DNA of 32,000 nt from Microcystis aeruginosa NIES-2549 (GTDB lineage Bacteria; Cyanobacteriota; Cyanobacteriia; Cyanobacteriales; Microcystaceae): assembly GCF_000981785.2 (NCBI RefSeq), contig NZ_CP011304.1, positions 330,001 to 362,000 on the forward strand. The letters are read 5' to 3'. Both the position numbers and the translations under genes were made by a program. How positions within the stretch are numbered: position 1 is the first letter of the stretch; the number at the start of each line of letters is the position of its first letter. The notes beneath the pieces were generated by a model. The model made no database searches, was not told the origin of the DNA, and worked only from the letters and a program-made list of their open reading frames with translations. Below, piece after piece: positions 6,042 to 21,760 of this stretch.

Positions 6042-7335
6042 GTATCGGGGGAAGTACCCAGAATCCGAGCTGCTTCCCCTATCTCGACTAATCTCTGTGC
6101 CTTAACAAAACCCAGTTAAAAACCCCCAACCTAGCTAGGTTGGACGAGATTATTTAAGCCATAAACTACTTTAGCGGTGATAATCTTATCCTGATCGGTA
6201 AGTTCTTCTAACACCTCTTTTCCCTGGACTAAATAGCCAAAAACCGAATAACGACCATCCATGAGATTAAACCCCGGAGGAGTTAATTCATTATCGAATT
6301 TAAAGAAAAAGAATTGCGAGGAACCTCCGTTAGGATTAGTATCCGGACGCGCCAAGGCCAATGCACCAAAAGCGTTAAAAGGCAAGGCGAGACTGGGTAA
6401 GTAAATCCCTAATTCTTCGAGAGTGTTGCCATAAACTGGTTCTTCTTCCCCTTTAATCAAAATTTCTAAGGGAATAGAGCGATATTGTTTAGTTTTCGGG
6501 TCAATAAACCCCTCTTCTGCACCGACGGGATCCCCAGTTTGCACAACGAAATTATCTTCGCTGCGAATAAAGGGTAAACCGTCATAAAAACCCCGTTGGA
6601 CTAAATCCACAAAGTTACCCCCATTAATCGGAGCGCTGTAACCATCCACAACGATGGTTAAATCTCCTTTGGTGGTCTGCATCTCTATGGTGGCACGTCC
6701 TCGCAATTGCGGCAAGTTAGCGTATTCCGGGGGAACGTTAAAGGGAAAACCCACCACCATTAATTCTTCTAAAGCGGTGATATTATTGAGCAATTCTCGT
6801 CTGGTTGACCAAACTGCCTCTTTATCCTTCGCTTCTACGGCCGTATCGAGGGCTGCCACTCCCGTTTTGAGTTTTTCGATTAATTCCTCTCCTTGGCTTT
6901 TACTTGCTTCGGGAACACTATCTAAGATAGCCTTGCTTTTGGTAGAAAGGGCATAATTGGCATCCTTGACATCTTTTTTAATCGGACTCCAACGCTTGGC
7001 CCGCAGATGTTTGGCAATATCTTCGATCGATTGTTGCACTTGACGAATTGGTTTATTATCTATGGGTAAGGCATTGCGTAAAATAGCGGTGGGATCCGTT
7101 ACCGCATCACCCTGAGCAAGCACAGCTAAAGCAGGGGCAGTCCCCTTAACCGTGAACAGACTTAAGATTAAAAATAGTGCTAGGGCGATACTAGCACCGC
7201 TTTTTAAGAAAAATTTGCCCCATTCCCATAATCTTGTCTTTATTTTCATATTTTGGTCGGTTCCTCAATGGCCATACCTATCCAAAATACTTGTAGGCTT
7301 TTAGGGGAACCCTTGTCAATAGCTGAGAAAACCGA
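6042..7335. repeat. Left (intact) copy of a long direct repeat: cyclophilin gene plus 3' flank and promoter region
   Basis: Segments 6042-6292, 6470-6655 and 7275-7335 reappear collinearly at 21251-21746. I counted about 13 mismatches over about 500 aligned bp by eye. Confidence 0.9.
6131..7249 (-). CDS. Cyclophilin-type peptidyl-prolyl cis-trans isomerase with N-terminal TM/signal and helical domain (thylakoid-lumen TLP40/CYP38-like)
   Basis: 372 aa. The C-terminal cyclophilin core includes GGNFVDLVQRGFYDGLPFIRSEDNFVVQTGDP, GGSSQFFF and GRYSVFGYLVQG. Confidence 0.85.
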   Translation of the reverse strand: MKIKTRLWEWGKFFLKSGASIALALFLILSLFTVKGTAPALAVLAQGDAVTDPTAILRNALPIDNKPIRQVQQSIEDIAKHLRAKRWSPIKKDVKDANYALSTKSKAILDSVPEASKSQGEELIEKLKTGVAALDTAVEAKDKEAVWSTRRELLNNITALEELMVVGFPFNVPPEYANLPQLRGRATIEMQTTKGDLTIVVDGYSAPINGGNFVDLVQRGFYDGLPFIRSEDNFVVQTGDPVGAEEGFIDPKTKQYRSIPLEILIKGEEEPVYGNTLEELGIYLPSLALPFNAFGALALARPDTNPNGGSSQFFFFKFDNELTPPGFNLMDGRYSVFGYLVQGKEVLEELTDQDKIITAKVVYGLNNLVQPS

Positions 7336-7941
7336 GTCAGGGATCGACAAGGATTATCTATCCCTAGACAGACCACCGGAGCGGTCAGAGGTGAAAATAG
7401 GTGTAAGATCAAAAAATTCTCCGATAACTGTTGCCCTATCCCCCGCGTGCCTACCTAGGGGCCTTAGAATCTTCTAGGGAAGGGATGAATCAATGGACGA
7501 TAATCCAAGGGGTAGAAATGGGCAGACCCAGCACTATACAATTAAAGTTTCAGAAAAACAACCGGGCAATTACGGAAGTTTCTGTGGGTGGTGCATCAGT
7601 TCTAGTCTGCCAAGGCAAGATGATAATTGCCGATGGGGAAACAAAAAGCGATATAAAAAGGTCATTGTGAGAGTGGTGGCCGAAGTTGGTAAAAAGGAGA
7701 TGAACAATGTTAAAACATTAAGACCTGCAAGGATCAATCTCGGTTTTGTGGGATGGATGACAATAAATTTGACAGGGTATATCGAAAAATATAAAATTTC
7801 TAGAGGGATAACCAAGAAAAAATACGGCAGTTATCTTAATGGCGAGGCAGTAAGCAAAACGAGGTTATGCTTGGTTTTTCTGAGAAAATCTGTCAGAGTC
7901 AATAGAATATCTATAGTTAGAGCCTATTAAAATTAATCATT

Positions 7942-10900
7942 ATGCTCACCTCTTATCAGGAACTACAAAAAGAACTTAGTTTGTCGTTACAAGACTTAAA
8001 TAGTTTTGCCGACAAATTCCAGGAAAGTTATGATATTATAGTGTCTGCAAACGAAATCAATGAGAATCATGGTGTCGGGGTTCTTTTAAAGAGAATTTTC
8101 CCTGATACCAGTGGGATAGTCTCCTTACGAACCACTAATCTCTACGGAGGGGAGCATCATTTTGGCGTTCAGAATTTTTGCCTAGATGTGCGCGGTTGTT
8201 CCTACGCAGAAATATTAGTAAAAATTCAAAAATTATTTGTTTATACAAAACCAAGAAGAGTTTTAGTAATCCCATATTTTACCGAGGATTTTTATGTAGG
8301 GGCGGCGATTAAATCTCTCTTTCAAGTCCCAGTTTGTACCTACTTGATGGATGATCAGAACGTCTATGTCAGGGCTGTGGCCGATGGCATTGTTAAGCAA
8401 TTAATAGATAATAGTGATCTAGTTTTAGGTATTTCTAAGCCCCTGTGCCAAGCCTATAGTAAAAAATACGAAAGGAAAATTTGGTTTGTACCGCCTCTAG
8501 TAGAAAGTCATTTAATGCCACCAGAAATTACCGCCCCCGATTCTATGGCAAGAGGGATTTTGATCGGTAATATCTGGTCTCAGACTTGGCTAGAAAATCT
8601 CAGGCAATTATGTCGAGAATCCCAGATCAAATTAGATTGGTATGGCAATCCTAATCGTCAATGGTTGCAATTCCAAGAAGCAGAGTTAGAACAAGATGGT
8701 ATCTTCTTTAAAGGTTACTGCAGCCAAGATGCTCTCATCTACTACTTACGTCAAGCACCTTTTGCAATCGTTCCCACCGCCAGTTCTGAAAACGAGCAAG
8801 ATCGTCCCGAATTCGCCTGTTTGAGTTTGCCTTCCCGTATTCCCTTTATTACCGCCGTTGCTAATACTCCGATCATTATTGTTGGTCGTGAAGATAGTGC
8901 CGCCGCTCAGTTCGTCAAAGAATTCGACCTAGGAACTGTCTGTGATTATAAAGCTCAAAGCTTATTAACAGAAATAGAGAAACTGCGAATAGAAAGCAAT
9001 CAACTGCGGCTCCGTTATTCCAGTCAAAAATTAGCCAAAAGCTTAAAAGCCGATCATTTTGATGATTGGCTCTGGAGATCGTTAGAACAGGGAAAACCCA
9101 TCGATAATCGCTTTGAACAATTCGAGAAAAATAGCCTTAAGTGCAGTGTGATCGTCACCGCTAGTGAAGTCAATCAAAGTCACGGGACAGGAGCTTTGGT
9201 CAGAAGAATCTTTCCCGATGATAGCGAGATTATTTCCATCCGTTCCGATAATCACTATGGTGGTGAACAACAATTCGGGGTCTTAAGCTTCCACCTTGAC
9301 CATAAGAAAATGTCGCGACCGGCGATATTTCAATCAATTCTCCAAACTCTCGGACACCATCAAGTCCAAAAAGTTTTTTGTGTCCCCTACTATGCCAGCG
9401 ATATTCTGACATCGATCGCTATTAAGGAATTATTTAATGTTCCCCTTGCCACCTACATCATGGACGATCAGAATATCTGCGTTCAGGAGATATCTGATGC
9501 TTTGATGGGGGAGTTTTTAAGCAAATGTTCCGTTCGTTTTGCCACCCATCCCGAACTCCGCGACGCTTACGAGAATAAGTACGGCTACAAATTTTGGCTC
9601 CTACCGGCGATCGTTCCCCACCGTCTCATTAATAGTGAAGTTGCCGAAGTTTCTCCCCAACGCTGTCAAGAAAAATGGGGAGCTTTATTAGGGAGTATTT
9701 GGAGTCCCCAATGGTTCCAATCTCTTTTAGAGAGTATTCAAGGAGCAGGAATTAAACTAGATTGGTATGGCAATTCTAACTATTATTGGCTCAAAGAATC
9801 TGCCGCAGAATTAGAAAAATGGGGACTTTATAGCCAAGGACTTTATCCCGAAGAACAACTAGGACAACAACTACAAGCATATCCCTTTGTTATTGTTCCC
9901 ACGGGGACCATGGACGAAAGAGATGATCGGACAGAATTGTCTCGCCTTAGTTTACCCGGCCGGATTATTTTTAACCTTGCCACCGCTAACACCCCGGTAA
10001 TTCTTTTAGGCAGTAATAAAACCTCGGCGGCTAACTTTATTAATCGCTTTCAAATCGGGGTGGTTTGTGATTATACACCCGAAAGTTTGGCAGCAGCCGT
10101 GGACTACGTTCTTAACCCAGAAAATCAGCAAAGAATGCGAGAAAATGCCGTTAAAGTAGCGGCAAAATTCTCCGATCAAGATATTAACAATTGGGTGTGG
10201 CAGTCCCTAGAAAAAGAACAGGCGTCCGATGACAGATTTGAAGCGATTTTACCTCGATCGCCGATAGATGCCGTGCCTTTTATTGAGCCACCTGTCCCCA
10301 AAAAGATTTATAAAGATTATGTGCCAGTTTATCAAGTGATGCGTCGTCTGCAAGGCCAGGGTTATCAACCGGATTTCGTTATTGATGTCGGTGCCTCCCA
10401 CGGCATCTGGTCTTTTACCGTTAGTCAATTATTCCCTGAAGCTCGTTATCTTCTCATCGATCCCTTGACTTCCCAATATGAGCAGTTCGCTAGAGATTAT
10501 TTTATCGGCAATATCCCCGTGGCAGAATTGTTGGAAGTGGCGGTTTCCAATGAAGAAGGACGTTTAAATTTGCAAGTTTCTGCCGATTTTTACTGTAGTT
10601 CCCTGCTTAATCCCGCCGATTTGAGAGACTATCAGCCGTTGGAAGTGGTTGTCACTACTATTGATCGGATCGCCGCAGAGCAGCAGATTTCCGGGCGTGG
10701 CATTCTCAAAATAGATGTTCAATACGCCGAACATCTTGTCTTAGAAGGAGCGCAAGCATTTCTCCCCCAAGTAGATTTGATTATCGCCGAACTATCCGTG
10801 ATCCGATACGATGAGAAATCTCTAGTTATTAGTGAAATGATTGATTGGTTAGACCGGTTGGGATTTCGCTATTATGACGAAACGGGAGAATGGCGATCGC

Positions 10901-11004
10901 CAATAGATGGAACTCTCTTGCAAAAGGAAATCGTCTTTATCCGTCAGGATCTATTAGTTCCCGAAACTAACCGAGAAATTAATCAATTTCCCTCTAAACC
11001 TTGA
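7942..11004 (+). CDS. Tri-modular protein: two duplicated ~370-aa modules (possibly GT-B-like glycosyltransferase) plus a C-terminal FkbM-family (Methyltransf_21) methyltransferase
   Basis: Module 1 starts at aa 31 (SANEINENHGVGVLLKRIFPD...LSLPSRIPFITAVANTPIIIVG). Module 2 starts at aa 402 (TASEVNQSHGTGALVRRIFPD...LSLPGRIIFNLATANTPVILLG). The FkbM motifs are IDVGASHGIWS (aa ~814) and LKIDVQYAEHLVLEGA (aa ~923). Confidence 0.8.
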   Translation: MLTSYQELQKELSLSLQDLNSFADKFQESYDIIVSANEINENHGVGVLLKRIFPDTSGIVSLRTTNLYGGEHHFGVQNFCLDVRGCSYAEILVKIQKLFVYTKPRRVLVIPYFTEDFYVGAAIKSLFQVPVCTYLMDDQNVYVRAVADGIVKQLIDNSDLVLGISKPLCQAYSKKYERKIWFVPPLVESHLMPPEITAPDSMARGILIGNIWSQTWLENLRQLCRESQIKLDWYGNPNRQWLQFQEAELEQDGIFFKGYCSQDALIYYLRQAPFAIVPTASSENEQDRPEFACLSLPSRIPFITAVANTPIIIVGREDSAAAQFVKEFDLGTVCDYKAQSLLTEIEKLRIESNQLRLRYSSQKLAKSLKADHFDDWLWRSLEQGKPIDNRFEQFEKNSLKCSVIVTASEVNQSHGTGALVRRIFPDDSEIISIRSDNHYGGEQQFGVLSFHLDHKKMSRPAIFQSILQTLGHHQVQKVFCVPYYASDILTSIAIKELFNVPLATYIMDDQNICVQEISDALMGEFLSKCSVRFATHPELRDAYENKYGYKFWLLPAIVPHRLINSEVAEVSPQRCQEKWGALLGSIWSPQWFQSLLESIQGAGIKLDWYGNSNYYWLKESAAELEKWGLYSQGLYPEEQLGQQLQAYPFVIVPTGTMDERDDRTELSRLSLPGRIIFNLATANTPVILLGSNKTSAANFINRFQIGVVCDYTPESLAAAVDYVLNPENQQRMRENAVKVAAKFSDQDINNWVWQSLEKEQASDDRFEAILPRSPIDAVPFIEPPVPKKIYKDYVPVYQVMRRLQGQGYQPDFVIDVGASHGIWSFTVSQLFPEARYLLIDPLTSQYEQFARDYFIGNIPVAELLEVAVSNEEGRLNLQVSADFYCSSLLNPADLRDYQPLEVVVTTIDRIAAEQQISGRGILKIDVQYAEHLVLEGAQAFLPQVDLIIAELSVIRYDEKSLVISEMIDWLDRLGFRYYDETGEWRSPIDGTLLQKEIVFIRQDLLVPETNREINQFPSKP

Positions 11005-11028
11005 TCCTCTATACCTAAAATATACCCC

Positions 11029-12417
11029 ATGATGAAACAATTATTAGCCAAAAATAAAATAGTTCGGCGAGTTAAAGCAGTCAAAGATTTATTTTTAGAA
11101 AAACTTGATTTACTCAGTCATGTCCAACTTGAACAAATCCAAAAACTGGAAAAACTGGAGAAACTTAATCAGCTTGATCCCTTAGATTTTAAGGTTGAGC
11201 AACTCAATAACTCCACGGAGCAAATCCGACAAGAAAATGCAGAAACCAAGCGAAAGGCTGATTTATCACTGGAAAATCAAGCCTTTTTGCTCAAGTTTTC
11301 CGTCGATATAATTAAAAATATGCAAGTATTGACGGAAAAAATCCAGACAAATCACAGCCAATCTCAAAAACAGCACGAATCAACTCTGGACACTTTCCAA
11401 AAAATAGCCAGCGATGTGCGATTAGACTCCCAAAAAATAGCCAGCGATGTGCGACAAGACTCCCAAAAACATAGTGATTTAATTCTCGATTCTTTCCAGA
11501 GAATTTATGAAGCTTACCAACAGCAAAGCGATGCTATTTTTGGAACCGTACAGAAAATACAAGAAAATCTCCATCAAATCAGCGAAGATAACCGCCAAAT
11601 CTTTGAAGATATTCACTCTCAAAAATATAAAGTCATTACCGATCAACAATATTTCCAAGATCTAGACATCGAATTAATGACTTATTTATATTCCTATCTT
11701 CCCCATCGTCTAGCATTAGATATTGGTGCTAATCGTGGCGATGTTTCTAGTCGTCTCCTACAAGCTGGTTATCAAGTTTATGCCTTTGAACCTTTTCCTC
11801 CCGTCATCGATAAGCTGAAAAATCGCCTCGGTGATCATCCTAACTTTCGGCTTTTTCCCTTTGCTCTCGGTTCCGAAAATCAAACCCAAGAACTGAATAT
11901 AGCCACGGATGAAACCGCCGACAACACCTATCAAGATGCCAGCTTTTATAGCAGTCTAACCAAGCATTCTCTTTCCGAAGGTTTAGTATTTACCGATACT
12001 ATTCCCGTCACCGTTAAAACCCTAGCCAGCCTCCACGATGGCGAGGAATTACCTAAAGATATTGGTTTAGTTAAAATTGACACAGAAGGCTTTGATTTAG
12101 AAGTAATCAAAGGTATGGGCAACTATCGTTATCCCGTGGTAGTTGCGGAATTTTGGGATAAAAATTTCCCCTTTGGTCGTTCGGGAGCGATGAATCAATT
12201 ACCAGATTTAGTCAAGGCCATGAAAGAAAGAGATTATCATTGGCATCTAGTTATCTATCGTATTTGGGGAAGTTCCGACGTTAGTTATTACTGTAATTCT
12301 GCATATTCCCTCGATAATTCTTGGGGCAATGTTTTCTTTTTCAAAGATTATCAGGTCTTCCATCAAGCCTTACTTTGGTCTGCTTCTGTTATGCCAGCTA
12401 CCTACTTTTCTGCTTAG
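11029..12417 (+). CDS. N-terminal ~200-aa coiled-coil region fused to an FkbM-family methyltransferase
   Basis: The N-terminal half is rich in Q/K/E/L and heptad-like (LEQIQKLEKLEKLNQL, QKIASDVRLDSQKIASDVRQDSQK). The C-terminal half has LDIGANRGDVSS and VKIDTEGFDLEVIKGM. Confidence 0.8.
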   Translation: MMKQLLAKNKIVRRVKAVKDLFLEKLDLLSHVQLEQIQKLEKLEKLNQLDPLDFKVEQLNNSTEQIRQENAETKRKADLSLENQAFLLKFSVDIIKNMQVLTEKIQTNHSQSQKQHESTLDTFQKIASDVRLDSQKIASDVRQDSQKHSDLILDSFQRIYEAYQQQSDAIFGTVQKIQENLHQISEDNRQIFEDIHSQKYKVITDQQYFQDLDIELMTYLYSYLPHRLALDIGANRGDVSSRLLQAGYQVYAFEPFPPVIDKLKNRLGDHPNFRLFPFALGSENQTQELNIATDETADNTYQDASFYSSLTKHSLSEGLVFTDTIPVTVKTLASLHDGEELPKDIGLVKIDTEGFDLEVIKGMGNYRYPVVVAEFWDKNFPFGRSGAMNQLPDLVKAMKERDYHWHLVIYRIWGSSDVSYYCNSAYSLDNSWGNVFFFKDYQVFHQALLWSASVMPATYFSA

Positions 12418-13992: not shown

Positions 13993-14739
13993 ATGAACTC
14001 TGAAAAACTGCAATTAAGGTCTGATTATCAAAAAATGCTTGATGACTTAGATCCTCAAGTCCTCCAGTTGGATCGACAGGTATTTAAACGGCTACAAAAC
14101 CTAGGTTACACCCCAAGGGTGATCTTTGATGTGGGTGCCTCTAATAGTGGCTGGTCCTACTATATCAAACAGGTGCTGCAGGAAGCTGAATTTTATCTCT
14201 TTGAACCTCTTATCGAATACAGCAGCGACTATCGGGAATTAATCTCAGAAATTCTGCGAGTCTATCCCTCCTTTCATCTGTATAAATACGCCCTAGGTGA
14301 AACCTGCGGCGAGGTGACGATGAATGTTTCCACGGACGTGGTGAGCAGTAGCCTCTTGCAAACCGGTGATGAGAGTCAGCCCACCACCCCCATCTCGGTG
14401 CAAATGTTAACAATTGATGACGCAATTGCCCGACTTGGTTTACCCCATCCCCAAGTGATCAAAATTGATACCCAAGGCTCGGAGTTGTCTATACTTAAAG
14501 GAGCCGTCAAAACCCTAGCTAAAGTCGATGTTCTCTTTCTCGAATGCTGGCTCTATCGGGGCTATGGCCAAAAAACTCCCCTCTTAACCGAAATCGCCGA
14601 TTGGTTATTATCCTTTAATTTTCGGCTTTGGGATGTGGCCGATGCCTATCGCGATCAAGGGGGAGTGCTAACCACATTAGATTGTATTTTTGTAAATACT
14701 CAAGCCAGTATTACCCCGATTTGGTACTATGAGAACTAG
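13993..14739 (+). CDS. Stand-alone FkbM-family methyltransferase
   Basis: 248 aa with FDVGASNSGWSYY and IKIDTQGSELSILKGA motifs. Confidence 0.85.
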   Translation: MNSEKLQLRSDYQKMLDDLDPQVLQLDRQVFKRLQNLGYTPRVIFDVGASNSGWSYYIKQVLQEAEFYLFEPLIEYSSDYRELISEILRVYPSFHLYKYALGETCGEVTMNVSTDVVSSSLLQTGDESQPTTPISVQMLTIDDAIARLGLPHPQVIKIDTQGSELSILKGAVKTLAKVDVLFLECWLYRGYGQKTPLLTEIADWLLSFNFRLWDVADAYRDQGGVLTTLDCIFVNTQASITPIWYYEN

Positions 14740-15124: not shown

Positions 15125-17665
15125 ATGGCAATCAGTACAGAAGTATACGCTTCGTTAAATATTCTTTATGCTTCCCAAGCTCCGTCAGCCTCTGACATTA
15201 GCTTGTGGCAGACTGACCCTAGCTTGACATCCCTGACTTGGGAAGAAACGGTTCTTGTTTTCGCCAATTCGGCCGCAGCCCAACAAACCTATCCCCTCTT
15301 GGCTGCCCCCGGAGCCGCCACCGATGCCACCAGACGGCAGTACGTTCTAGAGGTTTTTAACAATGCCTACGGCCTAGAAGAAGCCGATTTAAATGTCGAC
15401 GAGATTAACTACTGGGTTGAATGGCTCAGTCTCACCAATCCCGATGGTACGCCCGCCGACAGCGATGGCAACGGCATCCCCAATATTTTAGATTTTCCCA
15501 TCGTCCTTAACCAGTACCAGCCCGCTGCCATCCAACAGGCCCTGCTCAACCGGGCAGAAGTAGCCCTCGATTTCGCTGCCCAGTTCCAACTGGAAGGTAT
15601 TTCTAACTTTACCGAGGAAGACTACAACACCTCTTGGAGCATCCTTGAAACCGTGACCGCAGAAGAGGCTAGTGTTACTGCGGCTAAGGCCGCTAACCTA
15701 GTGGCCGCCGCCGAAGCTGGTGGGGCTGGCAATAGCGAAGCCTTGACCGCTGGTCAGGACGATTTCACCGCTAACCTTTTCCTCGCCGCCCCCGTCAACA
15801 ACTTCGGGCAGGTCAACCAAACCCTGAACAGTGGTGATAAACTAACCGGTTCCGGCACTAACCCCACTTTAACCGTCCTCTGGACTGGTGGTGCTGAAAG
15901 CGTCCTACCCATCTTCACCGATGTGGAGACCCTTAACGTTACTAACACGGGTCCTGTCGGTAATCTTTTGACCATTCTGGGAGCCAGTGTCACTGGTCTC
16001 AAGAATGTCAATGTTGCTGATAGTGTTTCTAGTATTGTTGGCGGTTTTATTTTCAGTAGCGATTTCTCATTGACCAACACTCAAACCGCAGTGGAAACGG
16101 TTTCTCTGAGCCGCACTAATGCTGATACCATCATCACCATCGCCAATGCCGCTCTTGCCGGTGACGAAGATGCGGTGACACTCACCTTGAATCAAGCTGG
16201 TACCGTCGCTGATAATGCTCAACTAACTCTTAATCCAGTATCTGGCACCGATGGCTACGAGCAACTAGCGATCGCGACCGAAGGGTTGGCCAGCACCGTT
16301 GATCTGACTGCCGTCGGTATTGAGGAAGTAACCATCACTGGGGATCAAGACCTAACCCTCACCAATGCCCTGGCCAACACCGCTACCAAGCTAGATGCCT
16401 CCGAGTTTGAGGGTGATTTATCCGTGATATCTGGTACCGGAACCATTGACTTTACAGGTGGTCTCGGTGATGATACTTTCACGGTCAACGGCTTTACCAG
16501 TGCGGATATCGTCGATGGTGGTGAAGGGACTAACACCCTAGAAGTGACCGCCGCTAATGCCGAAGGGATTACGGCCGAGAATGACAATATTACCAACATC
16601 CAAACCTTAGCCTTAATCAGTCCTGGTACTGCTGGCGCTACCCTACGGGCTGACCTTATCGGTGATGAAATCACTACGGTGGAGCTAGGAGGGGGGACTT
16701 TTGGTGCTTATACTATTCGCTTCAACGCGGGCAATAACACCTTAACCACTTTAGGCAACACTGGTGCTTTAGACGTTCAAGCGGAAGGCACTGCCACTAC
16801 CGATGCCCTCACCCTGAATATCGATGGAGCAGAGGCAAACAATCTCACTTTGACCTCTTTGACGTTAAACAACGTCGATCGACCGAGCGAGCAACTTACC
16901 ATCAACTCCACCGATGCTCCCGCTGGCCACACAATTGGGGCTGTCACCCTGCCTGATACCAACGGCGTAAATAACGCGATTACCATCACTGGTAACTCCA
17001 CTTTGACTATTGGTGGTGCAGTGACGGCGGACGAAATCGACGCTTCTGGCATGACCGATGGTGCGGCACTGGTGATGAATGGCAATTCTGCCATTGCCAT
17101 CTCCATCACTGGTTCGGAAGGCGATGACCGATTAGTTGGTAGTATTTTGCGAGACAGTATTAGCGGTGGGGGTGGTAATAATAATATTACTGGTGGTCTC
17201 GGTACAGACCAACTCACCGGTGGCGGCGGTATCGACACATTTGTCCAGGGGACTGCTGACAGTGCGGCTCGATCTGCGATTAGTGGTGCGGCGGCAGATA
17301 CCTTTACTGCCAATGGAACTATTACCTTTGCACCAGTTGGTACCTCTGCTGTCCCCAACGTCGATATCATCCGAGGATTCGTGGGCGGTGCTAATGGTGA
17401 CATACTGGACTTGAATTTTGCCGCGGCAGCAGTTACGGGTATTGGCGTAGCGAATAACAATCTGGCGGCTAACACCAACTACTTCTTGTCTGGTAACTTT
17501 ACCCTTGGCACGGGCGTATTTACTATTACCTCCGATGGCGGTGGTGCCGACACCTTGATCATTCAAGGTAATGGTGGTGCTAACTTCTTTGGGGGCGCTA
17601 ACGCTTCCTCGATCGTGTTACTTGGCCTTAACAGTAACAACTTAGTGGCTGCTAACATCATCTAG
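15125..17665 (+). CDS. Secreted surface / S-layer-like protein with RTX (GGxGxD) calcium-binding repeats; probable type I secretion substrate
   Basis: 846 aa. I see no Cys and no N-terminal signal peptide, and the composition is T/A/G/N/L-rich. The N-terminal region has a DUF4214-like stretch (YVLEVFNNAYGLEEADLNVDEINYWVEWL). RTX-like runs are FTGGLGDDTFTV and GSEGDDRLVGS...SGGGGNNNITGGLGTDQLTGGGGIDTF (nt ~17111-17245). Confidence 0.8.
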   Translation: MAISTEVYASLNILYASQAPSASDISLWQTDPSLTSLTWEETVLVFANSAAAQQTYPLLAAPGAATDATRRQYVLEVFNNAYGLEEADLNVDEINYWVEWLSLTNPDGTPADSDGNGIPNILDFPIVLNQYQPAAIQQALLNRAEVALDFAAQFQLEGISNFTEEDYNTSWSILETVTAEEASVTAAKAANLVAAAEAGGAGNSEALTAGQDDFTANLFLAAPVNNFGQVNQTLNSGDKLTGSGTNPTLTVLWTGGAESVLPIFTDVETLNVTNTGPVGNLLTILGASVTGLKNVNVADSVSSIVGGFIFSSDFSLTNTQTAVETVSLSRTNADTIITIANAALAGDEDAVTLTLNQAGTVADNAQLTLNPVSGTDGYEQLAIATEGLASTVDLTAVGIEEVTITGDQDLTLTNALANTATKLDASEFEGDLSVISGTGTIDFTGGLGDDTFTVNGFTSADIVDGGEGTNTLEVTAANAEGITAENDNITNIQTLALISPGTAGATLRADLIGDEITTVELGGGTFGAYTIRFNAGNNTLTTLGNTGALDVQAEGTATTDALTLNIDGAEANNLTLTSLTLNNVDRPSEQLTINSTDAPAGHTIGAVTLPDTNGVNNAITITGNSTLTIGGAVTADEIDASGMTDGAALVMNGNSAIAISITGSEGDDRLVGSILRDSISGGGGNNNITGGLGTDQLTGGGGIDTFVQGTADSAARSAISGAAADTFTANGTITFAPVGTSAVPNVDIIRGFVGGANGDILDLNFAAAAVTGIGVANNNLAANTNYFLSGNFTLGTGVFTITSDGGGADTLIIQGNGGANFFGGANASSIVLLGLNSNNLVAANII

Positions 17666-17697
17666 GTCTGAAGTGATTGACTTTAGATCTTGAATAG

Positions 17698-17728
17698 AAC
17701 CCAATCCCTTTATCGGGATTGGGTTTTT
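17698..17728 (+). terminator. Rho-independent terminator of the surface-protein gene
   Basis: The 11-bp perfect stem AACCCAATCCC / GGGATTGGGTT has a 6-nt loop and runs into a T5 tract, 33 nt after the stop codon. Confidence 0.75.
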
Positions 17729-17901
17729 AGTTTTTTCTAGTTCCAGGGTTCTACCTTTGCGTCCTGTGGGTAACGCACAGAAAACGGGTTTCTCCGAGAA
17801 ACCCGTTTTCTACCTTTGCCCCTACTTTTTCAGCTTTTCTGGGGGAAGTAGTAGGGTTAATTCATGAATTAACCCTACCTTTGATAAGGGGGGTGATAGC
17901 T

Positions 17902-18165
17902 TCAATTTCCTCGCGACTTTTCTGGGGGAAATCGCTTTAAGAGTTGCTGCTTGGAATACTGTAGGAGTAAAGGGGTAAATTCTTCCGGGGACAATTGTAA
18001 AATCCGGCTGATAATAGCTTGCAGTGGTGGGTCTAACTCACCGAAGCGGACTCGGAGCAGGTTTTCCACCACCAGACGTTCCCCCTCTTGCAGACCCCGT
18101 TCTTCTCCTTCGGCCAGTGCCTCTTGATAGACTCTCGTTTGTTTTAAATCACTTAGTCCAAACAT
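17902..18165 (-). pseudogene. DUF4351 fragment (C-terminal domain of an Rpn-family recombination-promoting nuclease / putative transposase), copy 1
   Basis: 87 aa: MFGLSDLKQTRVYQEALAEGEERG...LLRVRFGELDPPL...LSPEEF. In frame upstream of the ATG the DNA still reads KSREEIEA, the linker typical of full-length family members. This indicates a truncated relic. Confidence 0.6.
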
Positions 18166-18252
18166 AGCTTCAATTTCCTCGCGACTTTTCTGGGGGAAGT
18201 AGTAGGGTTAATTCATGAATTAACCCTACCCTTGATAAGGGGGGTGATAGCT

Positions 18253-18552
18253 TCAATTTCCTTGCGACTTTTCTGGGGGAAATCGCTTTAAGAGTTCCTG
18301 CTTGGAACACTGTAGGAGTAAAGGAGTAAATTCTTCTGGGGACAATTGTAAAATCCGGCTGATAATAGCTTGCAGTGGTGGGTCTAACTCACCAAAGCGG
18401 ACTCGGAGCAGGTTTTCCACCACCAGACGTTCCCCCTCTTGCAGACCCCGTTCTAAACCCCGTTCTAGACCCCGTTCTAGACCCCGTTCTTCTCCTTCGG
18501 CCAGTGCCTCTTGATAGACTCTCGTTTGTTTTAAATCACTTAGTCCAAACAT
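18253..18552 (-). pseudogene. DUF4351 fragment, copy 2, with a 36-bp in-frame expansion (ERGL)x3
   Basis: 99 aa, near-identical to copy 1 apart from three extra 12-bp ACCCCGTTCTAR units (array 18445-18492). Confidence 0.6.
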
Positions 18553-18837
18553 AGCTTCAATTTCCTCGCGACTTTTCTGGGGGAAGTAGTAGGGTTAATT
18601 CATGAATTAACCCTACCGGCTCTTCTAGGTTCTGTGTGATAAGTTTAACTTACAATATGATCGATCTTTGTGTCCTCTGTGTCTGGAGTGGTTCCCTCCA
18701 CTCCCTCGCCAGCAGGACTGTATCTCAGAATACATTTTACCCACCAAATCCAAAAGAGCCAATCTAGGGGACATGGCTCTTTTCCTGTATAATCAAGTCT
18801 TAATTTTATGACTTGCCATTATATTTGAGGAAAATCT

Positions 18838-20349
18838 ATGAATTGGACAGAGGGATATGTATTGGAAGTTAACTACACTAGCGGCTTTTACGGCGAGTTA
18901 AGTCCCCTAAAATTAGGTTTAGCCACTCTGATTAAATCCATTCAACCCCCCGATTCTAGCCAAGAATTTACCTATTGTGAATTGGCCTGTGGTCAGGGTT
19001 TTACCACGAATATTTTAGCGGCAACCTATCCCCACGCCCAATTTTATGCCAATGATTTCAATCCTAGTCATATCGCCACGGCTAGAGATTTAGCGGCCAA
19101 GGCGGGGATGAAGAATATTCTTTTCTTTGATGATAGTTTTGAGGAATTTTTAGAGCGAGATTTACCTCAATTTGACTTCATCAGTCTGCACGGAATTTAT
19201 AGCTGGATTAGTGCCATAAATCGCCAAGCAATAGTTAATTTTATTCGCCGCAATCTCAAGGTGGGGGGATTAGTTTATATCTCCTATAATGCCCTTCCGG
19301 GTTGGTCAGCAGCGATGCCGATGCAGGCTTTAATGTTGCGTCATGGTCAACACAGTTCCGAACCAATTTTAACCCGCATTGAACAGGCTCTTAATTTTAC
19401 AGGAGAATTATTAGAAGCTAATGCTAGTTATTTTGCCCAAAATCCAATTTTAAAAAGTCGTTACGAGCGCCTAAAGGAACAAAATCGTTATTATTTAGCT
19501 CACGAGTATTTCAATCAGGAATGGAATTCTTTTTACTTCGATGAAGTGGCGAAAGAATTAGAGGATGCTAAACTTAAATATGTGGGTTCTGCCCATATTA
19601 ATGACCATATTGATACAGTCAATCTCTCCCCAGTTGCCCAAGAAAAATTAGCCAAAATCAGCGACCCAATCTATCGGGAAGTGGTGCGAGATTTCTTTCT
19701 TAATAGCCAATTCCGTCGTGATATTTTTAGTCGAGGCTCCTTAGGTTTAACCCTCCAAGAACAGGTTAAACAACTAGAAGAAACTCGGTTTGCCATGATT
19801 GTTAATCCCGCAATTATCAAGTTCGAGCATCAGTTTCCCGTGGGAGAAGTTAAGTTACAGGAGACAGTTTATCAGCCAATTTGTGAAGTTTTGGCGGAAT
19901 CTCCCCAAACTTTACTGCAACTAAAAAATCACCCCAAAACCTCAAATATTAACTTAAATGGTCTTTCCCAAGCTCTGATGATTTTAACTGGTATTGGCTA
20001 TATTCATCCTGCTGTGGATGAGCAAACTTGCCAACAACGGAAACCATCTACTGATGCTTTTAATAATGCAGTGAAAGCGAAAGCAGTCTATAGTGAGGAA
20101 TTAAGCTTTTTAGCTTCTCCTTTGATTGGGACTGGAGTAGTGGTCAATCGTTTAGAACAATTATTCCTCTTGGCTAAATCCTATAACCAAGATGCAGTAC
20201 AATTTGTTTGGCAAAATTTGGCAAGTCAAGGCAAAAAAGTGGTTAAAGATGGGAAACCTTTGGAAACAGAGGAGGAAAATATTACGGTTCTTCCGAACTT
20301 ACACTGTGGAAAATTCCCCAAGCTCCCTCTCTGTCCAGCAATGCTCTAA
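18838..20349 (+). CDS. Class I SAM-dependent methyltransferase with C-terminal methyltransferase regulatory domain (PF10119-like); C-terminus rewritten by a MITE insertion
   Basis: 503 aa with WTEGYVLEVNYTSGFYGELSP at the start, the SAM motif ELACGQGF, and HGIYSWIS. The last 22 codons are MITE-derived. Confidence 0.8.
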   Translation: MNWTEGYVLEVNYTSGFYGELSPLKLGLATLIKSIQPPDSSQEFTYCELACGQGFTTNILAATYPHAQFYANDFNPSHIATARDLAAKAGMKNILFFDDSFEEFLERDLPQFDFISLHGIYSWISAINRQAIVNFIRRNLKVGGLVYISYNALPGWSAAMPMQALMLRHGQHSSEPILTRIEQALNFTGELLEANASYFAQNPILKSRYERLKEQNRYYLAHEYFNQEWNSFYFDEVAKELEDAKLKYVGSAHINDHIDTVNLSPVAQEKLAKISDPIYREVVRDFFLNSQFRRDIFSRGSLGLTLQEQVKQLEETRFAMIVNPAIIKFEHQFPVGEVKLQETVYQPICEVLAESPQTLLQLKNHPKTSNINLNGLSQALMILTGIGYIHPAVDEQTCQQRKPSTDAFNNAVKAKAVYSEELSFLASPLIGTGVVVNRLEQLFLLAKSYNQDAVQFVWQNLASQGKKVVKDGKPLETEEENITVLPNLHCGKFPKLPLCPAML

Positions 20350-20448
20350 AGTTGATAAATATCAATCTAACAAAAACTCAAAGCCCTATTATACAAGCTT
20401 TACAAGTATGAGTTGTTGATAGTTTGACATGACAGGTTCGGTAGAGCC
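20286..20448. mobile_element. 163-bp MITE with imperfect 15-bp terminal inverted repeats and an 8-bp target-site duplication AATATTAC
   Basis: The left end is GGTTCTTCCGAACTT and the reverse complement of the right end is GGCTCTACCGAACCT (12/15 match). The TSD copies are at 20278-20285 and 20449-20456. Removing the element plus one TSD restores an in-frame ORF ending at TAA 20527-20529. Confidence 0.8.
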
Positions 20449-20560
20449 AATATTACTCATCTGAAAACAGTGTACGAGGAGTTTAGTCAAGGACGTTTAC
20501 TAACATTGCAAAAACTGGGTATTGAGTAAATACTAAGTAAGTAATCTCATTGTAATCGGC

Positions 20561-21160
20561 TACTTAGATAGGTGGTGCGTTACGACGGATTGTTACTTTC
20601 AAGTCAAAGCAGTAATTTTTGCCGTTACGTTTTACTACTTAGTGGTGCGTTACGACGGTTTGTTACTTTCAAGTCAAAGCAGTAATTTTTGCCGTTACGT
20701 TTTACTACTTAGTGGTGCGTTACGACGGTTTGTTACTTTCAAGTCAAAGCAGTAATTTTTGCCGTTACGTTTTACTACTTAGTGGTGCGTTACGACGGTT
20801 TGTTACTTTCAAGTCAAAGCAGTAATTTTTGCCGTTACGTTTTACTACTTAGTGGTGCGTTACGACGGTTTGTTACTTTCAAGTCAAAGCAGTAATTTTT
20901 GCCGTTACGTTTTACTACTTAGTGGTGCGTTACGACGGATTGTTACTTTCAAGTCAAAGCAGTAATTTTTGCCGTTACGTTTTACTACTTAGTGGTGCGT
21001 TACGACGGTTTGTTACTTTCAAGTCAAAGCAGTAATTTTTGCCGTCTAACTACGTTTTACTACTTAGTTGATGATAGGTGGTGCGTTACGACGGATTGTT
21101 ACTTTCAAGTCAAAGCAGTAATTTTTGCCGTCTAACGCACCCTACGTTTTGCTACTCTAA
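20561..21160 (+). repeat. 70-bp tandem array, 8 units (units 2-5 identical; unit 7 is 86 bp; unit 8 carries a complete 14-bp closing stem)
   Basis: The unit is GGTGCGTTACGACGG(T/A)TTGTTACTTTCAAGTCAAAGCAGTAATTTTTGCCGTTACGTTTTACTACTTAGT. Unit starts are 20574, 20644, 20714, 20784, 20854, 20924, 20994 and 21080. Confidence 0.95.
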
Positions 21161-21250
21161 GCTGAAAAGGTCATGGACAGAGTAACATCTACTAACTGCC
21201 TTGTCTTCACTAGCGGGGAATATTTGCCTCGACAATTGCCACTTTCTGGG

Positions 21251-21746
21251 GTATCGGGGGAAGTCCCCACAATCTGAGCTGCTTCCCCTATCTTGACTAA
21301 TCTCTGTGCCTTAACAAAACCTAGTTAAAAACCCCCACCCTAGCTAGGTTGGACGAGATTATTTAAGCCATAAACCACTTTAGCGGTGATAATCTTATCC
21401 TGATCGGTAAGTTCTTCTAACACCTCTTTTCCCTGGACTAAATAGCCAACAACCGAATAACGACCATCCATGAGATTAAACCCCGGAGGAGTTAATTCAT
21501 TGGGAATAGAGCGATATTGCTTAGTTTTCGGGTCAATAAACCCCTCTTCTGCACCGACGGGATCCCCAGTTTGCACAAAGAAATTATCTTCGCTGCGAAT
21601 GAAGGGTAAACCGTCATAAAAACCCCGTTGGACTAAATCCACAAAGTTACCCCCATTAATCGGAGCGCTGTAACCATCCACAACGATACCTATCTAAAAT
21701 ACTTGTAGGCTTTTAGGGGAACCCTTGTCAATAGGTGAGAAAACCG
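21251..21746. repeat. Right (degenerate) copy of the cyclophilin-locus direct repeat
   Basis: It is collinear with 6042-7335 but has two internal deletions, equivalent to 6293-6469 (177 bp) and 6656-7274 (619 bp). Confidence 0.9.
21340..21681 (-). pseudogene. Cyclophilin PPIase remnant lacking the N-terminal ~200 codons, the start codon and 59 internal core codons
   Basis: The 113-aa frame is identical or nearly so to the C-terminal part of the 6131-7249 product. The segment LEILIKG...GGSSQFFFFKFD is missing. The apparent start is an internal GTG (Val in the intact copy) with no Shine-Dalgarno. Confidence 0.85.
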
Positions 21747-21760
21747 ATCAAAGCCATTAT

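Follow-up and report, generated by a model that had tools for sequence, protein, structure and literature searches.

Replacement-type flexible genomic islands are represented by the O-antigen loci of Enterobacteria and by the hypervariable surface-glycan islands of Prochlorococcus, SAR11 and Alteromonas. In another well-known arrangement, genes for S-layer proteins or surface glycoproteins lie beside glycosylation clusters, as in the slg clusters of Gram-positive bacteria; Synechocystis has an RTX-type S-layer protein, Sll1951. The flexible-island concept is cited, for example, in PMC5647855 (its reference 13, Avrani et al. 2011). In Microcystis aeruginosa, the gene cluster of the O-glycosylated CT pilus includes an O-GlcNAc transferase and an FkbM methyltransferase (PMC12397347), and the RpnA-E systems of E. 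coli combine an Rpn (recombination-promoting nuclease) toxin, a short C-terminal antitoxin and variable four-residue repeats (PMC10400941). Here we analyzed a 32,000-nt stretch of M. aeruginosa NIES-2549, a strain assigned to M. aeruginosa group G (contig NZ_CP011304.1, positions 330,001 to 362,000; hereafter the window), in which 13,912 bp (7336-21247) separate two copies of a cyclophilin gene (cyp). This 13.9-kb region is probably the strain's own allele of a genus-wide, replacement-type variable surface-glycoprotein locus, the cargo of which is swapped via conserved borders. The best reading of the locus is therefore that of an ordinary yet clearly resolved cassette-replacement hotspot, and a newly acquired island is not favoured.

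Direct comparison revealed a segmental duplication with one copy disabled (Table 1). Three collinear segments of the left unit reappear in the right copy, namely, 6039-6292 as 21248-21501 (254 nt, 9 mismatches), 6470-6655 as 21502-21687 (186 nt, 3 mismatches) and 7274-7335 as 21686-21747 (62 nt, 2 mismatches). Together they contain 14 mismatches over 502 aligned nucleotides (97.2% identity), which is far beyond chance in 32 kb. An earlier note, made from the sequence alone, had described three such direct repeats and two clean deletions in the right copy, and both the repeat search and the direct comparison confirmed this, with small corrections: its count by eye was about 13 mismatches in about 500 bp, the left repeat begins 3 nt earlier than proposed (at 6039), and the second deletion measures 620 bp (1297-500-177) instead of 619 bp. 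The first deletion, J1 (junction 21501/21502), is indeed in frame and 177 bp long, and removes 59 core residues (aa 261-319, including GGSSQFFFF). J2, with its junction at 21686-21687 in a 2-nt AT microhomology, eliminates aa 1-198, the start codon and 24 nt of the leader, and places the retained 62-nt upstream segment 5 nt from the GTG start of a residual 113-aa ORF (21340-21681). This segment (7275-7335 in the earlier note) does lie upstream of the gene; since no strong sigma-70 match was found within 7274-7335, it can be called only a putative promoter region. The intact left gene, cyp_L, has the CYP38/TLP40-type architecture, that is, an N-terminal PsbQ-like helical domain (PF21329 CYP38_PsbQ-like, 140 bits, cutoff 27) and a C-terminal cyclophilin domain (PF00160, 105 bits, cutoff 21.7), and, by extension from the literature on plant CYP38, may function in PSII assembly. 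The cluster of intact cyp proteins has 579 members across Microcystis, and the cyp_L unit recurs unchanged (100% identity) in NIES-2481 and at 99.8% identity in NIES-3807.

Table 1. The cyp-associated variable locus of NIES-2549 and its borders (positions in the window)
Feature	Position	Strand	Evidence
PMT_2-family (GT-C type) glycosyltransferase gene (PMT), conserved left neighbour	3961..5553	-	Pfam PF13231, PF02366
Flank A, one of two cyp 3'-flank forms	5806..6038		sequence comparison
Left repeat unit (cyp_L unit) of 1297 nt, comprising the intact gene with its 3' flank and 86 nt of upstream sequence	6039..7335	-	repeat search, direct comparison
Intact CYP38/TLP40-like cyclophilin gene, 372 aa	6131..7249	-	Pfam
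Native cyp-PhzF intergenic region and PhzF pseudogene	7336..7670	+	profile match, L106 alignment
1020-aa fusion: weak GT1-type glycosyltransferase region and C-terminal FkbM methyltransferase; first cargo gene	7942..11004	+	PF05050, TIGR01444, weak PF00534
FkbM-family methyltransferase, 462 aa; cargo	11029..12417	+	profile searches
Multi-pass membrane protein, 501 aa; cargo	12466..13971	+	translation
FkbM-family methyltransferase, 248 aa; cargo	13993..14739	+	profile searches
RTX-type secreted/surface protein, 846 aa, Thr/Ser/Gly/Asn-rich, C-terminal GGxGxD beta-roll	15125..17665	+	weak PF00353, PDB matches
Rpn-element relic zone	17834..18617	-	repeat and profile searches
Class I methyltransferase with PF10119 regulatory domain (MT_Reg), 503 aa; conserved right-border gene	18838..20349	+	Pfam
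70-bp minisatellite, ~8 copies; part of conserved right border	20502..21131		repeat search
Flank B, cyp 3' flank in most Microcystis genomes	21152..21247		comparison
Right repeat (cyp_R pseudogene), 500 nt	21248..21747	-	repeat search, direct comparison
cyp-mtnW spacer	21748..21974		comparison
mtnW-like RuBisCO-like protein	21975..23135	+	NCBIfam
serS	23191..24474	-	annotation

The doubly deleted remnant is found, gap-free and at 98.6-100% identity, in other loci as well (L081, L108, L191-L197), and its cluster comprises 11 protein variants, which come from no fewer than six NIES strains and from numerous metagenome contigs. Because none of the 11 variants interrupts the 113-aa ORF and J2 has left the upstream segment next to its GTG, the remnant might be suspected of being functional, either as a truncated cyclophilin-like protein or as a regulatory element of mtnW, with the retained upstream segment of cyp driving expression. 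However, such a product would have neither the native start codon nor the signal/PsbQ-like half and would lack 59 core residues of the cyclophilin fold, and over the same codons pN/pS is ~1.05 for remnants (from small counts, 8 synonymous and 30 nonsynonymous differences over 10 non-independent pairs) against 0.14 for intact alleles. Moreover, at only ~1% divergence a stop-free ORF of 113 codons is expected by chance. A function of the remnant is therefore hardly credible; judging from its substitution pattern, it is old and dead, and drifts neutrally.

Direct repeats enclosing accessory genes also bring to mind a mobile island that recently integrated at cyp and duplicated its target (in a Campbell-type or integrase-mediated event), in which case the two copies would be attL/attR-like and the island excisable as a unit. 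Empty-site alleles, as well as relics of an Rpn-family 'putative transposase' within the region, would fit such an origin. However, searches of the island ORFs of at least 60 aa against Pfam and NCBIfam yielded DUF4351 relics of an Rpn-family gene but not a single domain of an integrase, recombinase or transposase, and the window contains no tRNA/tmRNA, Rfam family or att-type feature. In bulk, the region came out native in the GC and k-mer comparison with the flanks, with a GC content of 43.0% versus 44.0% and a tetranucleotide distance that is elevated solely at the RTX gene and the satellite. Furthermore, the repeat is a 1297-nt whole-gene unit, not a short near-identical repeat made by insertion, and its copies are ~3% apart, compared with a conservation of at least 99.4% for either copy within the window's clade.

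The borders of the region argue in the same direction. What the earlier note took for the left island boundary, 7335/7336, is in fact the native intergenic region between cyp and a PhzF gene that is now a pseudogene, as revealed by alignment with L106, where the 5' end of cyp, the promoter, the same 7335/7336 junction and a full-length PhzF gene follow one another. In the window, the PhzF start codon is mutated (ATG to ATC at 7408) and a ~709-bp internal deletion at a CTAYCTA microhomology (junction ~7445-7455) has left a C-terminal relic ORF (7431-7670) matching positions 234-281 of the 281 in the PF02567 profile. Every homolog of this relic that was found is a fragment of 45-98 aa, the fuller PhzF being the one aligned from L106, and L198 has an independent PhzF deletion of ~140 bp. 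On the other side of cyp_L is the PMT gene, part of a block termed S1 (window positions 1-5800); loci of types A and C have it contiguous with cyp. Flank A, which separates the two, contains an 11-mer repeat (5898-5949) and a solo Rpn-element end consisting of the palindrome GTAGGGTTGATTCATGAATCAACCCTAC (5949-5976) and an inverted 18-nt end sequence. It is also present in L001, L009, L082-L085, L111, L120 and L129; most other genomes have flank B instead.

At the right border, sequences earlier interpreted as transposase-related relics and a MITE turned out to be tandem partial copies of an Rpn-family (DUF2887/DUF4351) element, separated by three perfect 28-nt palindromes (at 17851, 18202 and 18589). 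They include small DUF4351/Rpn C-terminal-like ORFs (17902-18165 and 18253-18552) and a GLER repeat region (18443-18490). In other strains, this zone holds an intact Rpn-family gene (TIGR01784, 82 bits versus a cutoff of 52 in L086) and a gene for a 123-aa protein that corresponds to residues 201-283 of Rpn and has an expanded GLER repeat. In the window, the zone is reduced to short ORFs of the C-terminal type. The neighbouring MT_Reg is 92-98% identical across Microcystis and adjoins cyp in type B and type C loci, and the copy number of the 70-bp minisatellite varies between strains from 0 to 8. The cyp-mtnW spacer, in which TCRAAG precedes two repeat arrays, (TTATCAG)n at 21757-21814 and (TCCCCAAT)n at 21843-21924, corresponds to the sequence usually found upstream of cyp in single-copy genomes. 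Gene annotation bears out that the right repeat adjoins the mtnW-like gene and then serS, both of which are syntenic in nearly all Microcystis loci compared. The mtnW-like ORF scores below the equivalog cutoffs (NF007095, 375 bits versus 409; TIGR03332, 322 versus 513.6), and thus, while its product is a RuBisCO-like protein, the name mtnW (2,3-diketo-5-methylthiopentyl-1-phosphate enolase) is plausible but unproven.

Comparison with other Microcystis loci supported two claims of the earlier note, namely, that the DNA between the copies is accessory-like, since its content varies between strains, and that the locus is polymorphic for presence and absence. Empty-site alleles, with PMT, a single cyp and mtnW contiguous, were found in L001, L003, L004/L128, L111, L120 and L129. 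In contrast, the suggestion that an island was acquired at the cyclophilin locus did not hold, because most sampled genomes have a homologous variable locus beside a single intact cyp located at the position of the window's remnant (L006, L008, L010, L086, L088-L090, L115-L117, L119, L122, L123 and L127). The order in this locus is cassette, RTX gene, Rpn element, MT_Reg and satellite, and at its left end the common single-copy arrangement has ychF, EF-G and the PhzF relic, as pieced together from overlapping contigs of different samples (95.3% identity over 2.5-2.9 kb). The EF-G-type border starts within a few nucleotides of the window's PhzF deletion junction (shared ACCTAGGGG), a coincidence that our best explanation leaves unexplained.

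Several other genomes carry the same bracket. Contig BJCK01000037 of NIES-3807 reads serS-mtnW-remnant-MT_Reg-Rpn-GT-RTX743-MT-MT-PhzF relic-cyp-PMT, with J1 and J2 identical to those of the window and flanks of 97.5-99% identity, and yet its ~8.5-kb cargo is unrelated, without any nucleotide similarity to that of the window. In NIES-3806 (contig BJCJ01000006), both cyp copies surround an ~18-kb island with different cargo, and in L192-L197 the remnant stands beside a cassette 92% like that of L096, which itself has the EF-G border. Thus, the carriers of one bracket (the window and NIES-2481, NIES-3807, NIES-3806 and L192-L197) do not share cargo, and at least four kinds of cassette are enclosed by the remnant, all of which encode an RTX/DUF4214 protein along with GT, FkbM or other methyltransferases. 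Since an identical remnant encloses different cargo, the bracket must be older than the cargo, which has therefore been exchanged through the conserved borders and has not moved with the repeats. Conversely, one cassette type may occur behind different border alleles: that of NIES-3807 recurs in L198 at 97% over 8.4 kb, where the PhzF in front of it has decayed in another way, and the case of L096 and L192 is similar. This re-assortment likewise indicates exchange. Both borders (the PhzF relic on one side; the Rpn zone, MT_Reg, satellite, cyp and mtnW on the other) are 92-99% conserved in more than 25 loci. Taken together with the native left junction and composition and the missing integrase, recombinase or tRNA, the differing cargos and the homologous locus beside a single intact cyp largely refute a recent mobile-island insertion, which we regard as very improbable.

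We infer instead that cargo exchange between strains would proceed by homologous recombination anchored in the conserved borders, with no excision or integration of a mobile element. The left border consists of cyp_L and the PhzF pseudogene, and the right one of the Rpn-family element, MT_Reg, the 70-bp minisatellite, flank B, cyp_R and mtnW/serS. In the scenario that we propose, the 1.3-kb cyp unit was duplicated long ago, or a second allele was brought in, so that cyp came to lie on both sides of the locus. Lineages would then each have kept one functional copy: most Microcystis the mtnW-proximal one, and the window's clade the PMT-proximal one, the other being killed by two microhomology-type deletions. 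Among the Microcystis genomes compared, none was found with two intact copies. The state of L106, in which a cyp_L truncated to 47 codons is located beside full-length PhzF, points to two copies having once been present, with reciprocal decay thereafter.

The origin of the second copy can be approached through allele divergence. In the comparison of cyp_L with the remnant, 17 of 500 sites differ (about 3%), with ~8 differences private to the remnant and ~6 derived in cyp_L; within the window's clade each copy varies by at most 0.6%. The remnant is about as far from some orthologs, for instance that of L010 (16 of 500 sites), so cyp_L is no closer to it, and no deep split of cyp alleles into two paralog clades was seen. 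On these grounds, a foreign origin of one copy would be equally compatible with the allele data. The second cyp may then have arrived horizontally, on a fragment carrying cyp and the adjacent variable locus from another Microcystis lineage, either by one-end homology (homology-facilitated illegitimate recombination) or by single-crossover integration of a circularised fragment, one copy having decayed later. The divergence between the copies is indeed that of orthologs from different genospecies (16-30/500), and the cassette exchange shows that DNA flows between lineages here. In addition, all four combinations of the 3' flank (A or B) and the 5' junction (TCGAAG or GTCRGGG) exist in the population, and thus recombination with cyp as a homology arm must be frequent. 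However, the reciprocal state of L106 suggests that the two-copy state is older than the window's clade, the copies have rare variants in common (though only about three), and no illegitimate junction is visible, both contexts looking native in other genomes. On balance, we consider horizontal arrival unlikely.

Another possibility is that large rearrangements, that is, inversion or translocation via Rpn elements, palindromes or other repeats, moved the block of PMT, cyp and the 5' part of PhzF beside a cassette locus already ending in cyp-mtnW, the duplication being incidental. Elsewhere, the left neighbour of the cassette is ychF/EF-G and not PMT/cyp; in W13-11, PMT-cyp-mtnW and EF-G-cassette are on different contigs, with the cassette elsewhere in the genome. 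A solo Rpn-element end is present 62 nt from cyp_L in every flank-A locus, the neighbours on the promoter side of cyp are different in L002, L007, L041 and L113, and the Microcystis genome is described as highly plastic (PMC2442094). Nevertheless, rearrangement alone makes no second cyp, and no inverted or direct Rpn pair of the required geometry was seen, which makes this explanation decidedly improbable as an account of the arrangement. Larger rearrangements have been involved in addition to border recombination, given that the cassette lies elsewhere in W13-11 and that the alleles of empty-site genomes carry no mosaic signature of a recent loop-out from the window's arrangement.

Such a loop-out was anticipated in the earlier note. 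The repeats, with perfect runs of 73, 86 and 39 nt, are long enough for RecA-type recombination, and recombination between the cyp copies could delete the locus; however, cyp would stay functional only if the crossover fell within the 62-nt upstream segment. In the other two of the three segments, the product would be a dead cyp only, and for this reason decay of the right copy would stabilise the locus.

The cargo transferases and the membrane protein are predicted from their domain annotation to build or attach methylated glycans. The 1020-aa fusion protein has counterparts of 80-88% amino acid identity in L096 and L097, and its gene is absent from the NIES-3806 and NIES-3807 cassettes. The 501-aa membrane protein matched nothing in Pfam or NCBIfam; an early loop with the motif 'WIDEV' suggests a possible glycosyltransferase of the GT-C-like type. 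The gene for the 846-aa protein has 52% GC, and residues 620-770 of its product match beta-rolls of the RTX type in PDB entries for alkaline protease, CyaA and serralysin. Presumably, this protein is a substrate or partner of the cargo transferases. In other strains, the same slot is occupied by RTX/DUF4214 proteins of different sequence.

Among known systems, the locus most resembles replacement-type islands: the same slot is used in many strains, the borders are 97-99% identical and the cargo is unrelated but of the same functional class, dedicated mobility genes are absent, composition is native and homologous recombination in the flanks accounts best for the exchange. It departs from them in having the border gene cyp on both sides, one copy being a conserved pseudogene, in the addition of a semi-conserved RTX-type gene and an Rpn-family element, and in that the whole locus and its neighbours are also shuffled between synteny blocks. 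With integrase-type islands and prophages, whose attL/attR repeats derive from a duplicated tRNA end or gene 3' end, it shares direct repeats of a host gene enclosing accessory DNA and the empty sites in relatives. Unlike theirs, its repeat is a 1.3-kb whole-gene unit with both flanks, 3% diverged and devoid of an integrase or att core, the cargo varies within identical brackets, and the position of the remnant is the normal gene position in most strains. The Rpn unit at the right border of other strains is akin to the E. coli system in that a TIGR01784 gene is accompanied by a small protein copying its C-terminal domain, the two differing mainly in the number of GLER tetrapeptide repeats. The Microcystis unit, a putative module of nuclease and antitoxin, differs from the latter in that the short protein comes from a separate adjacent gene and not from an internal start, and in that the unit has 28-nt palindromes on either side and is present as partial copies in tandem. 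The likeness to the CT-pilus cluster is one of gene content. Finally, as in surface-glycoprotein clusters, the gene for a secreted repeat-rich protein is co-located with glycosyltransferases and FkbM methyltransferases, and the 846-aa protein, which might have an S-layer role, is rich in Thr and Ser, as would be expected of an O-glycosylated protein.

The direct repeat that the earlier note had read around the accessory region was recovered by repeat search and base-by-base comparison as three collinear segments with an overall identity of 97.2% (see table). The left unit, of 1297 nt, holds an intact 372-aa gene (cyp_L) coding for CYP38-type PsbQ-like and cyclophilin domains. It is separated by 13,912 bp from the right unit, a remnant of 500 nt. 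Direct comparison bore out the in-frame deletion of 177 bp in the remnant, which removes aa 261-319 including GGSSQFFFF (junction J1). The second deletion (junction J2) does take away the N-terminal part (aa 1-198), the start codon and 24 nt of the leader, with an AT microhomology at the junction; its size is 620 bp rather than the 619 bp counted by eye.

Coordinates of features of the cyp locus in the window and of related elements in compared loci (L-numbers)
Feature	Coordinates (strand)	Remarks
Core-looking genes		left of cyp_L; the last codes for a PMT_2 glycosyltransferase (PMT)
161-aa ORF	3396-3881(-)	beside PMT; no match in Pfam scan; orthologs have precomputed annotation PF27807 (DNA_S_mod_dnd_assoc_4)
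11-mer tandem repeat	5898-5949	ATCAAGGGGGG, 4.7 copies
Palindrome, solo copy	5949-5976	
Repeat segment 1	6039-6292 = 21248-21501	254 nt, 9 mismatches
Repeat segment 2	6470-6655 = 21502-21687	186 nt, 3 mismatches
Repeat segment 3	7274-7335 = 21686-21747	62 nt, 2 mismatches
cyp_L	6131-7249(-)	
PhzF pseudogene	7336-7670	first feature between the copies
1020-aa GT/FkbM fusion protein		after PhzF pseudogene
462-aa FkbM methyltransferase		after 1020-aa fusion
501-aa polytopic membrane protein		after 462-aa methyltransferase; no family match
248-aa FkbM methyltransferase		after 501-aa membrane protein
846-aa Thr/Ser/Gly/Asn-rich protein	15125-17665	residues ~620-770 match RTX beta-rolls
Rpn-family (DUF2887/DUF4351) element	17834-18617	tandem partial copies
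Palindrome copies, Rpn zone	17851-17878, 18202-18229, 18589-18616	
Small ORFs, Rpn zone	17902-18165(-), 18253-18552(-)	
Tandem repeat, Rpn zone	18443-18490	
503-aa methyltransferase (MT_Reg)		after Rpn zone; PF10119 regulatory domain
70-bp minisatellite	20502-21131	between MT_Reg and cyp
cyp-mtnW spacer repeats	21757-21814, 21843-21924	
mtnW-like RuBisCO-like protein, then serS		right of remnant
Palindrome copies, other loci	L086 4161 and 5517; L089 4503 and 5859; L090 4430 and 5798	
Rpn gene and 123-aa gene	L086 4212-5087(-), 5109-5480(-)	
IS605-type OrfB/TnpB genes	L086 12888-16611; L088 13316-13798; L195 5653-6876	PF01385/PF07282

Within the clade both copies are nearly invariant: the remnant is 100% identical to that of NIES-2481 and 99.4% to that of NIES-3807, and the corresponding values for cyp_L are 100% and 99.8%. 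A comparison of cyp_L with the remnant gives 17 differences in 500 aligned sites, of which about eight are private to the remnant and about six derived in cyp_L. About three rare variants are common to both; the remnant is no nearer to cyp_L than to some orthologs, such as that of locus L010 (16 differences). Over the same codons, pN/pS is 1.05 among remnants versus 0.14 among 34 intact alleles. The remnant is a pseudogene of considerable age evolving under neutral drift. The second copy may have arisen by internal duplication or by import of a foreign allele. The comparison covered about 50 Microcystis loci, taken from species-representative genomes, NCBI assemblies and metagenomes. No genome among them has two intact copies; each has retained one intact cyp, which is under purifying selection.

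The sequence CP012375.1 is 99.5-99.7% identical to the window and has the same arrangement, with ~1 kb more in the Rpn zone. This sequence belongs to M. aeruginosa NIES-2481 (group G, Lake Kasumigaura; PMC5865083), and exact proteins of the window were found under NIES-2549 and NIES-2481 accessions. Across Microcystis, three configurations could be defined. In type A, PMT, cyp, mtnW and serS are contiguous; these are the empty sites that the earlier note had proposed to look for, a single cyp being followed by mtnW either with 3′ flank A (L001, the complete genome L003, L111, L120 and L129) or with the alternative flank B (L004/L128). The commonest configuration, type B (L006, L008, L010, L086, L088-L090, L115-L117, L119, L122, L123 and L127), runs cassette, RTX protein, Rpn element, MT_Reg, satellite, flank B, intact cyp, mtnW and serS; therefore, the sole functional cyp of these strains occupies the exact position of the remnant in the window. 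The left end of type B appears to consist of ychF, EF-G and a PhzF relic (L096-L105), as joined across samples; L097 overlaps L086 and L089 with 95.3% identity over 2.5-2.9 kb. Type C is the order of the window: PMT, flank A, cyp_L, PhzF pseudogene and cassette, ending with MT_Reg, satellite, flank B, cyp remnant and mtnW.

There are also loci in which cyp adjoins flank B and MT_Reg on one side but has other DNA on its promoter side. In L113 (1-10000), L114, L121, L124 and L002 a sugar-biosynthesis cluster (three GT2 genes, DegT aminotransferase, NAD-epimerase/dehydratase, methyltransferase and another DUF4351 gene) is joined to the promoter side after GTCRGGG, a junction resembling that of the left copy in the window. 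All four combinations of the 3′ flank (A or B) with the 5′ junction (TCGAAG-heptamers or GTCRGGG) exist, making cyp a conserved anchor with rearrangement-prone glycan-related DNA on both sides. In W13-11 the cassette lies elsewhere in the genome, adjoining EF-G. A tblastn comparison of 22 window proteins with 69 non-Microcystis cyp loci found no neighbour in common; outgroups thus give no information on which genes were ancestrally adjacent to cyp. IS605-type OrfB/TnpB genes, one with a resolvase-type partner, lie between serS and an M23 peptidase gene in L086, L088 and L195; the window is free of these insertions.

The same bracket was found around different cargos. One contig of NIES-3807 (BJCK01000037.1; L108 and L083 merged) carries both the remnant and the intact gene in the order serS, mtnW, 113-aa cyp remnant, MT_Reg, Rpn gene, GT, RTX743, two FkbM methyltransferases, PhzF relic, intact cyp and PMT. 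Its J1 and J2 junction sequences are those of the window and its flanks are 97.5-99% identical; its cargo of ~8.5 kb has no similarity to the window cargo. In NIES-3806 (BJCJ01000006.1; L191, L082) both copies flank an ~18-kb island with yet another cargo, and L084 combines the left border of the window with a cargo related to that of NIES-3806. The cluster of remnant ORFs comprises 11 variants, all of 113 aa, from NIES-2549, -2481, -3806, -3807, -3787 and -2521 and from JGI and ENA metagenomes. A single variant occurs on 13 contigs; those that were read, L192-L197, have a cassette 92% like the one in L096. All these remnants align without gaps to the 500 nt of the window at 98.6-100% identity. 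Since an identical remnant surrounds different cargos, the bracket predates the present cargo. Shared cassettes also stand behind differing borders: in L198, the PhzF pseudogene in front of a NIES-3807-type cassette (97% over 8.4 kb) has lost ~140 bp in a deletion of its own. Cargo and borders therefore re-assort. A separate ~2.3-kb insertion between cyp and PMT in NIES-3807 (L083 11686-14293) holds a 588-aa ORF without a Pfam match and a second copy of the opening 50 codons of PMT.

The left junction bears on whether the island was inserted at cyp. Of the PhzF profile, the ORF at 7431-7670 covers no more than the final 48 positions, and its homologs among 5.8 billion proteins searched are all fragments of 45-98 aa. 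Contig L106 shares the upstream region of cyp and the 7335/7336 junction with the window; a cyp 5′ end of only 47 codons precedes them there, and 120 nt beyond the junction comes a full-length, possibly intact PhzF reading frame (5401-6389). Relative to L106, the window has an ATG-to-ATC change at 7408 and a deletion of ~709 bp at a CTAYCTA microhomology (window 7445-7455). It follows that cyp_L and PhzF belong side by side in divergent orientation, and that the left junction, as read from these alignments, is native rather than an insertion scar. The decayed cyp copy in L106 is the left one, and this reciprocal decay is the main argument for an ancestral two-copy state. Cassette-adjacent PhzF has decayed independently several times, through the ~709-bp deletion in the window clade, the ~140-bp deletion in L198 (~470) and, in L096-type loci (~7655-7670), a truncation with an EF-G neighbour. 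The start of the EF-G-type border coincides within a few nt with the PhzF deletion junction of the window, with ACCTAGGGG shared around a CCTAGG site. The exact left junction, TAGCTGAGAAAACCGAGTCAGGG, had no matches in the metagenome collection scanned. A 145-aa ORF that overlaps the PhzF relic in a different frame (7493-7930) was not counted as a confident gene because its protein is less conserved (~76%) than its DNA (~85%).

The region between the copies had been considered accessory-looking, and a foreign composition was tried and rejected: its GC content is 43.0% versus 44.0% in the flanks, and tetranucleotide distance is raised only by the RTX gene and the satellite. No tRNA, tmRNA or Rfam family was found in the window, domain scans of the window found no integrase or transposase domain, and in repeat and palindrome searches the ends of the island proved free of long inverted repeats. 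Loop-out between the repeats, as the earlier note proposed, is feasible because the longest perfect matches in the three segments are 73, 86 and 39 nt. A crossover in segment 1 or 2 would leave cyp with one or both deletions, and only the 62-nt upstream segment would yield an intact gene; since all the genomes examined keep one intact cyp, decay of the right copy probably stabilises the locus. Presence/absence polymorphism does exist, but the empty-site genomes are not recent loop-out derivatives of the window arrangement: their alleles differ from cyp_L at 32-42 sites spread across the whole unit, and the mosaic pattern of recent loop-out was not seen in them. The reading as an island acquired or rearranged at the cyclophilin locus is thus partly supported: content varies between strains and empty sites occur, but the remnant marks the usual position of cyp, the left junction is native and the bracket is older than its cargo.

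Several database annotations and repeats in the locus deserve mention. The RTX-type gene is an 813-aa 'alkaline phosphatase' in GenBank (AKE62708.1) and an 846-aa 'beta strand repeat-containing protein' in RefSeq (WP_052734151.1); domain scans detected no phosphatase domain in it. Exact-protein look-ups of the 145-aa ORF, the 1020-aa protein and MT_Reg returned no record. The minisatellite is a variable-number repeat, with 8 copies in the window and NIES-2481 and 0-5 at the same position in other strains. In the cyp-mtnW spacer, heptamers TTATCAG/TCATCAG/GCCGTCA and the octamer TCCCCAAT stand in tandem; every type A and type B locus has such repeats at the equivalent position, with number and sequence varying in nearly every strain.

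The Rpn zone is marked by a 28-nt perfect palindrome, GTAGGGTTRATTCATGAATYAACCCTAC. It is Microcystis-specific: Microcystis loci totalling 0.77 Mb contain 46 copies, and 1.77 Mb of loci from other cyanobacteria contain none. In other strains the palindrome brackets a unit of ~1.36 kb, consisting of an Rpn-family (TIGR01784/DUF2887) gene and a 123-aa gene, that looks like a discrete small element; this module is a conserved part of the right border. Solo copies occur in every flank A locus 62 nt from cyp, and a solo element end likewise lies 62 nt from cyp_L. The 11-mer repeat directly beside the solo palindrome of flank A looks as if CCTTGATAAGGGGGG, the sequence of the element end, had been inverted and expanded. 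As for the 123-aa gene, it duplicates the C-terminal domain of the Rpn protein (residues 201-283) as a separate gene, the main difference being a GLER tetrapeptide expansion. In this respect the border element resembles the RpnL toxin/RpnS antitoxin pairs of E. coli, which also carry variable four-residue repeats (PMC10400941). As the window keeps two small ORFs of the C-terminal type without a full-length Rpn gene, these may be orphan antitoxin-like genes. That the element promotes rearrangements of the locus is speculative. It seems improbable that the Rpn module is the engine rather than a passenger, with breaks or RecA-independent joins driving cassette replacement, border re-assortment and cyp duplication; if so, this would be a dedicated cassette-exchange hotspot for a surface glycoprotein likely exposed to phages or grazers.

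Taken together, the comparisons suggest that the locus is flexible and of the replacement type, coding for a surface RTX protein and putative glycan- and methyl-modifying enzymes. Cargo alleles would pass from strain to strain through homologous recombination, with the conserved borders as anchors. One of these borders includes the anchor gene cyp in a second copy that is old and, in this clade, dead. Many strains co-exist in a Microcystis bloom. Prime candidates for what makes their susceptibility to phages and grazers strain-specific, and for what governs colony formation, are differences in surface glycans and surface proteins. The analysis defines a concrete variable surface locus, bordered by cyp/PhzF relic on one side and MT_Reg/70-bp satellite/cyp or remnant/mtnW on the other, with cargo swapped between strains. 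Configurations of the locus in genomes and metagenomes can be typed simply by the J1/J2 remnant junctions, by which PhzF decay variant and which 3′ flank (A or B) is present, and by the copy number of the satellite. More generally, direct repeats of a host gene around accessory DNA do not alone prove recent insertion; a tempting misreading is corrected here, in that the 'remnant' marks the usual position of the gene and the bracket is older than its contents.

No description of the locus or of the cyp duplication was found in the literature searched. According to published reports, Microcystis genomes are highly plastic, and FkbM methyltransferases and glycosyltransferases are strain-specific and bloom-expressed (PMC2442094, PMC5647855). 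The O-glycosylated CT-pilus cluster of M. aeruginosa also has an FkbM methyltransferase (PMC12397347), a likeness by analogy only. The window locus most resembles replacement-type surface-glycan islands, here with a duplicated, half-decayed anchor gene.
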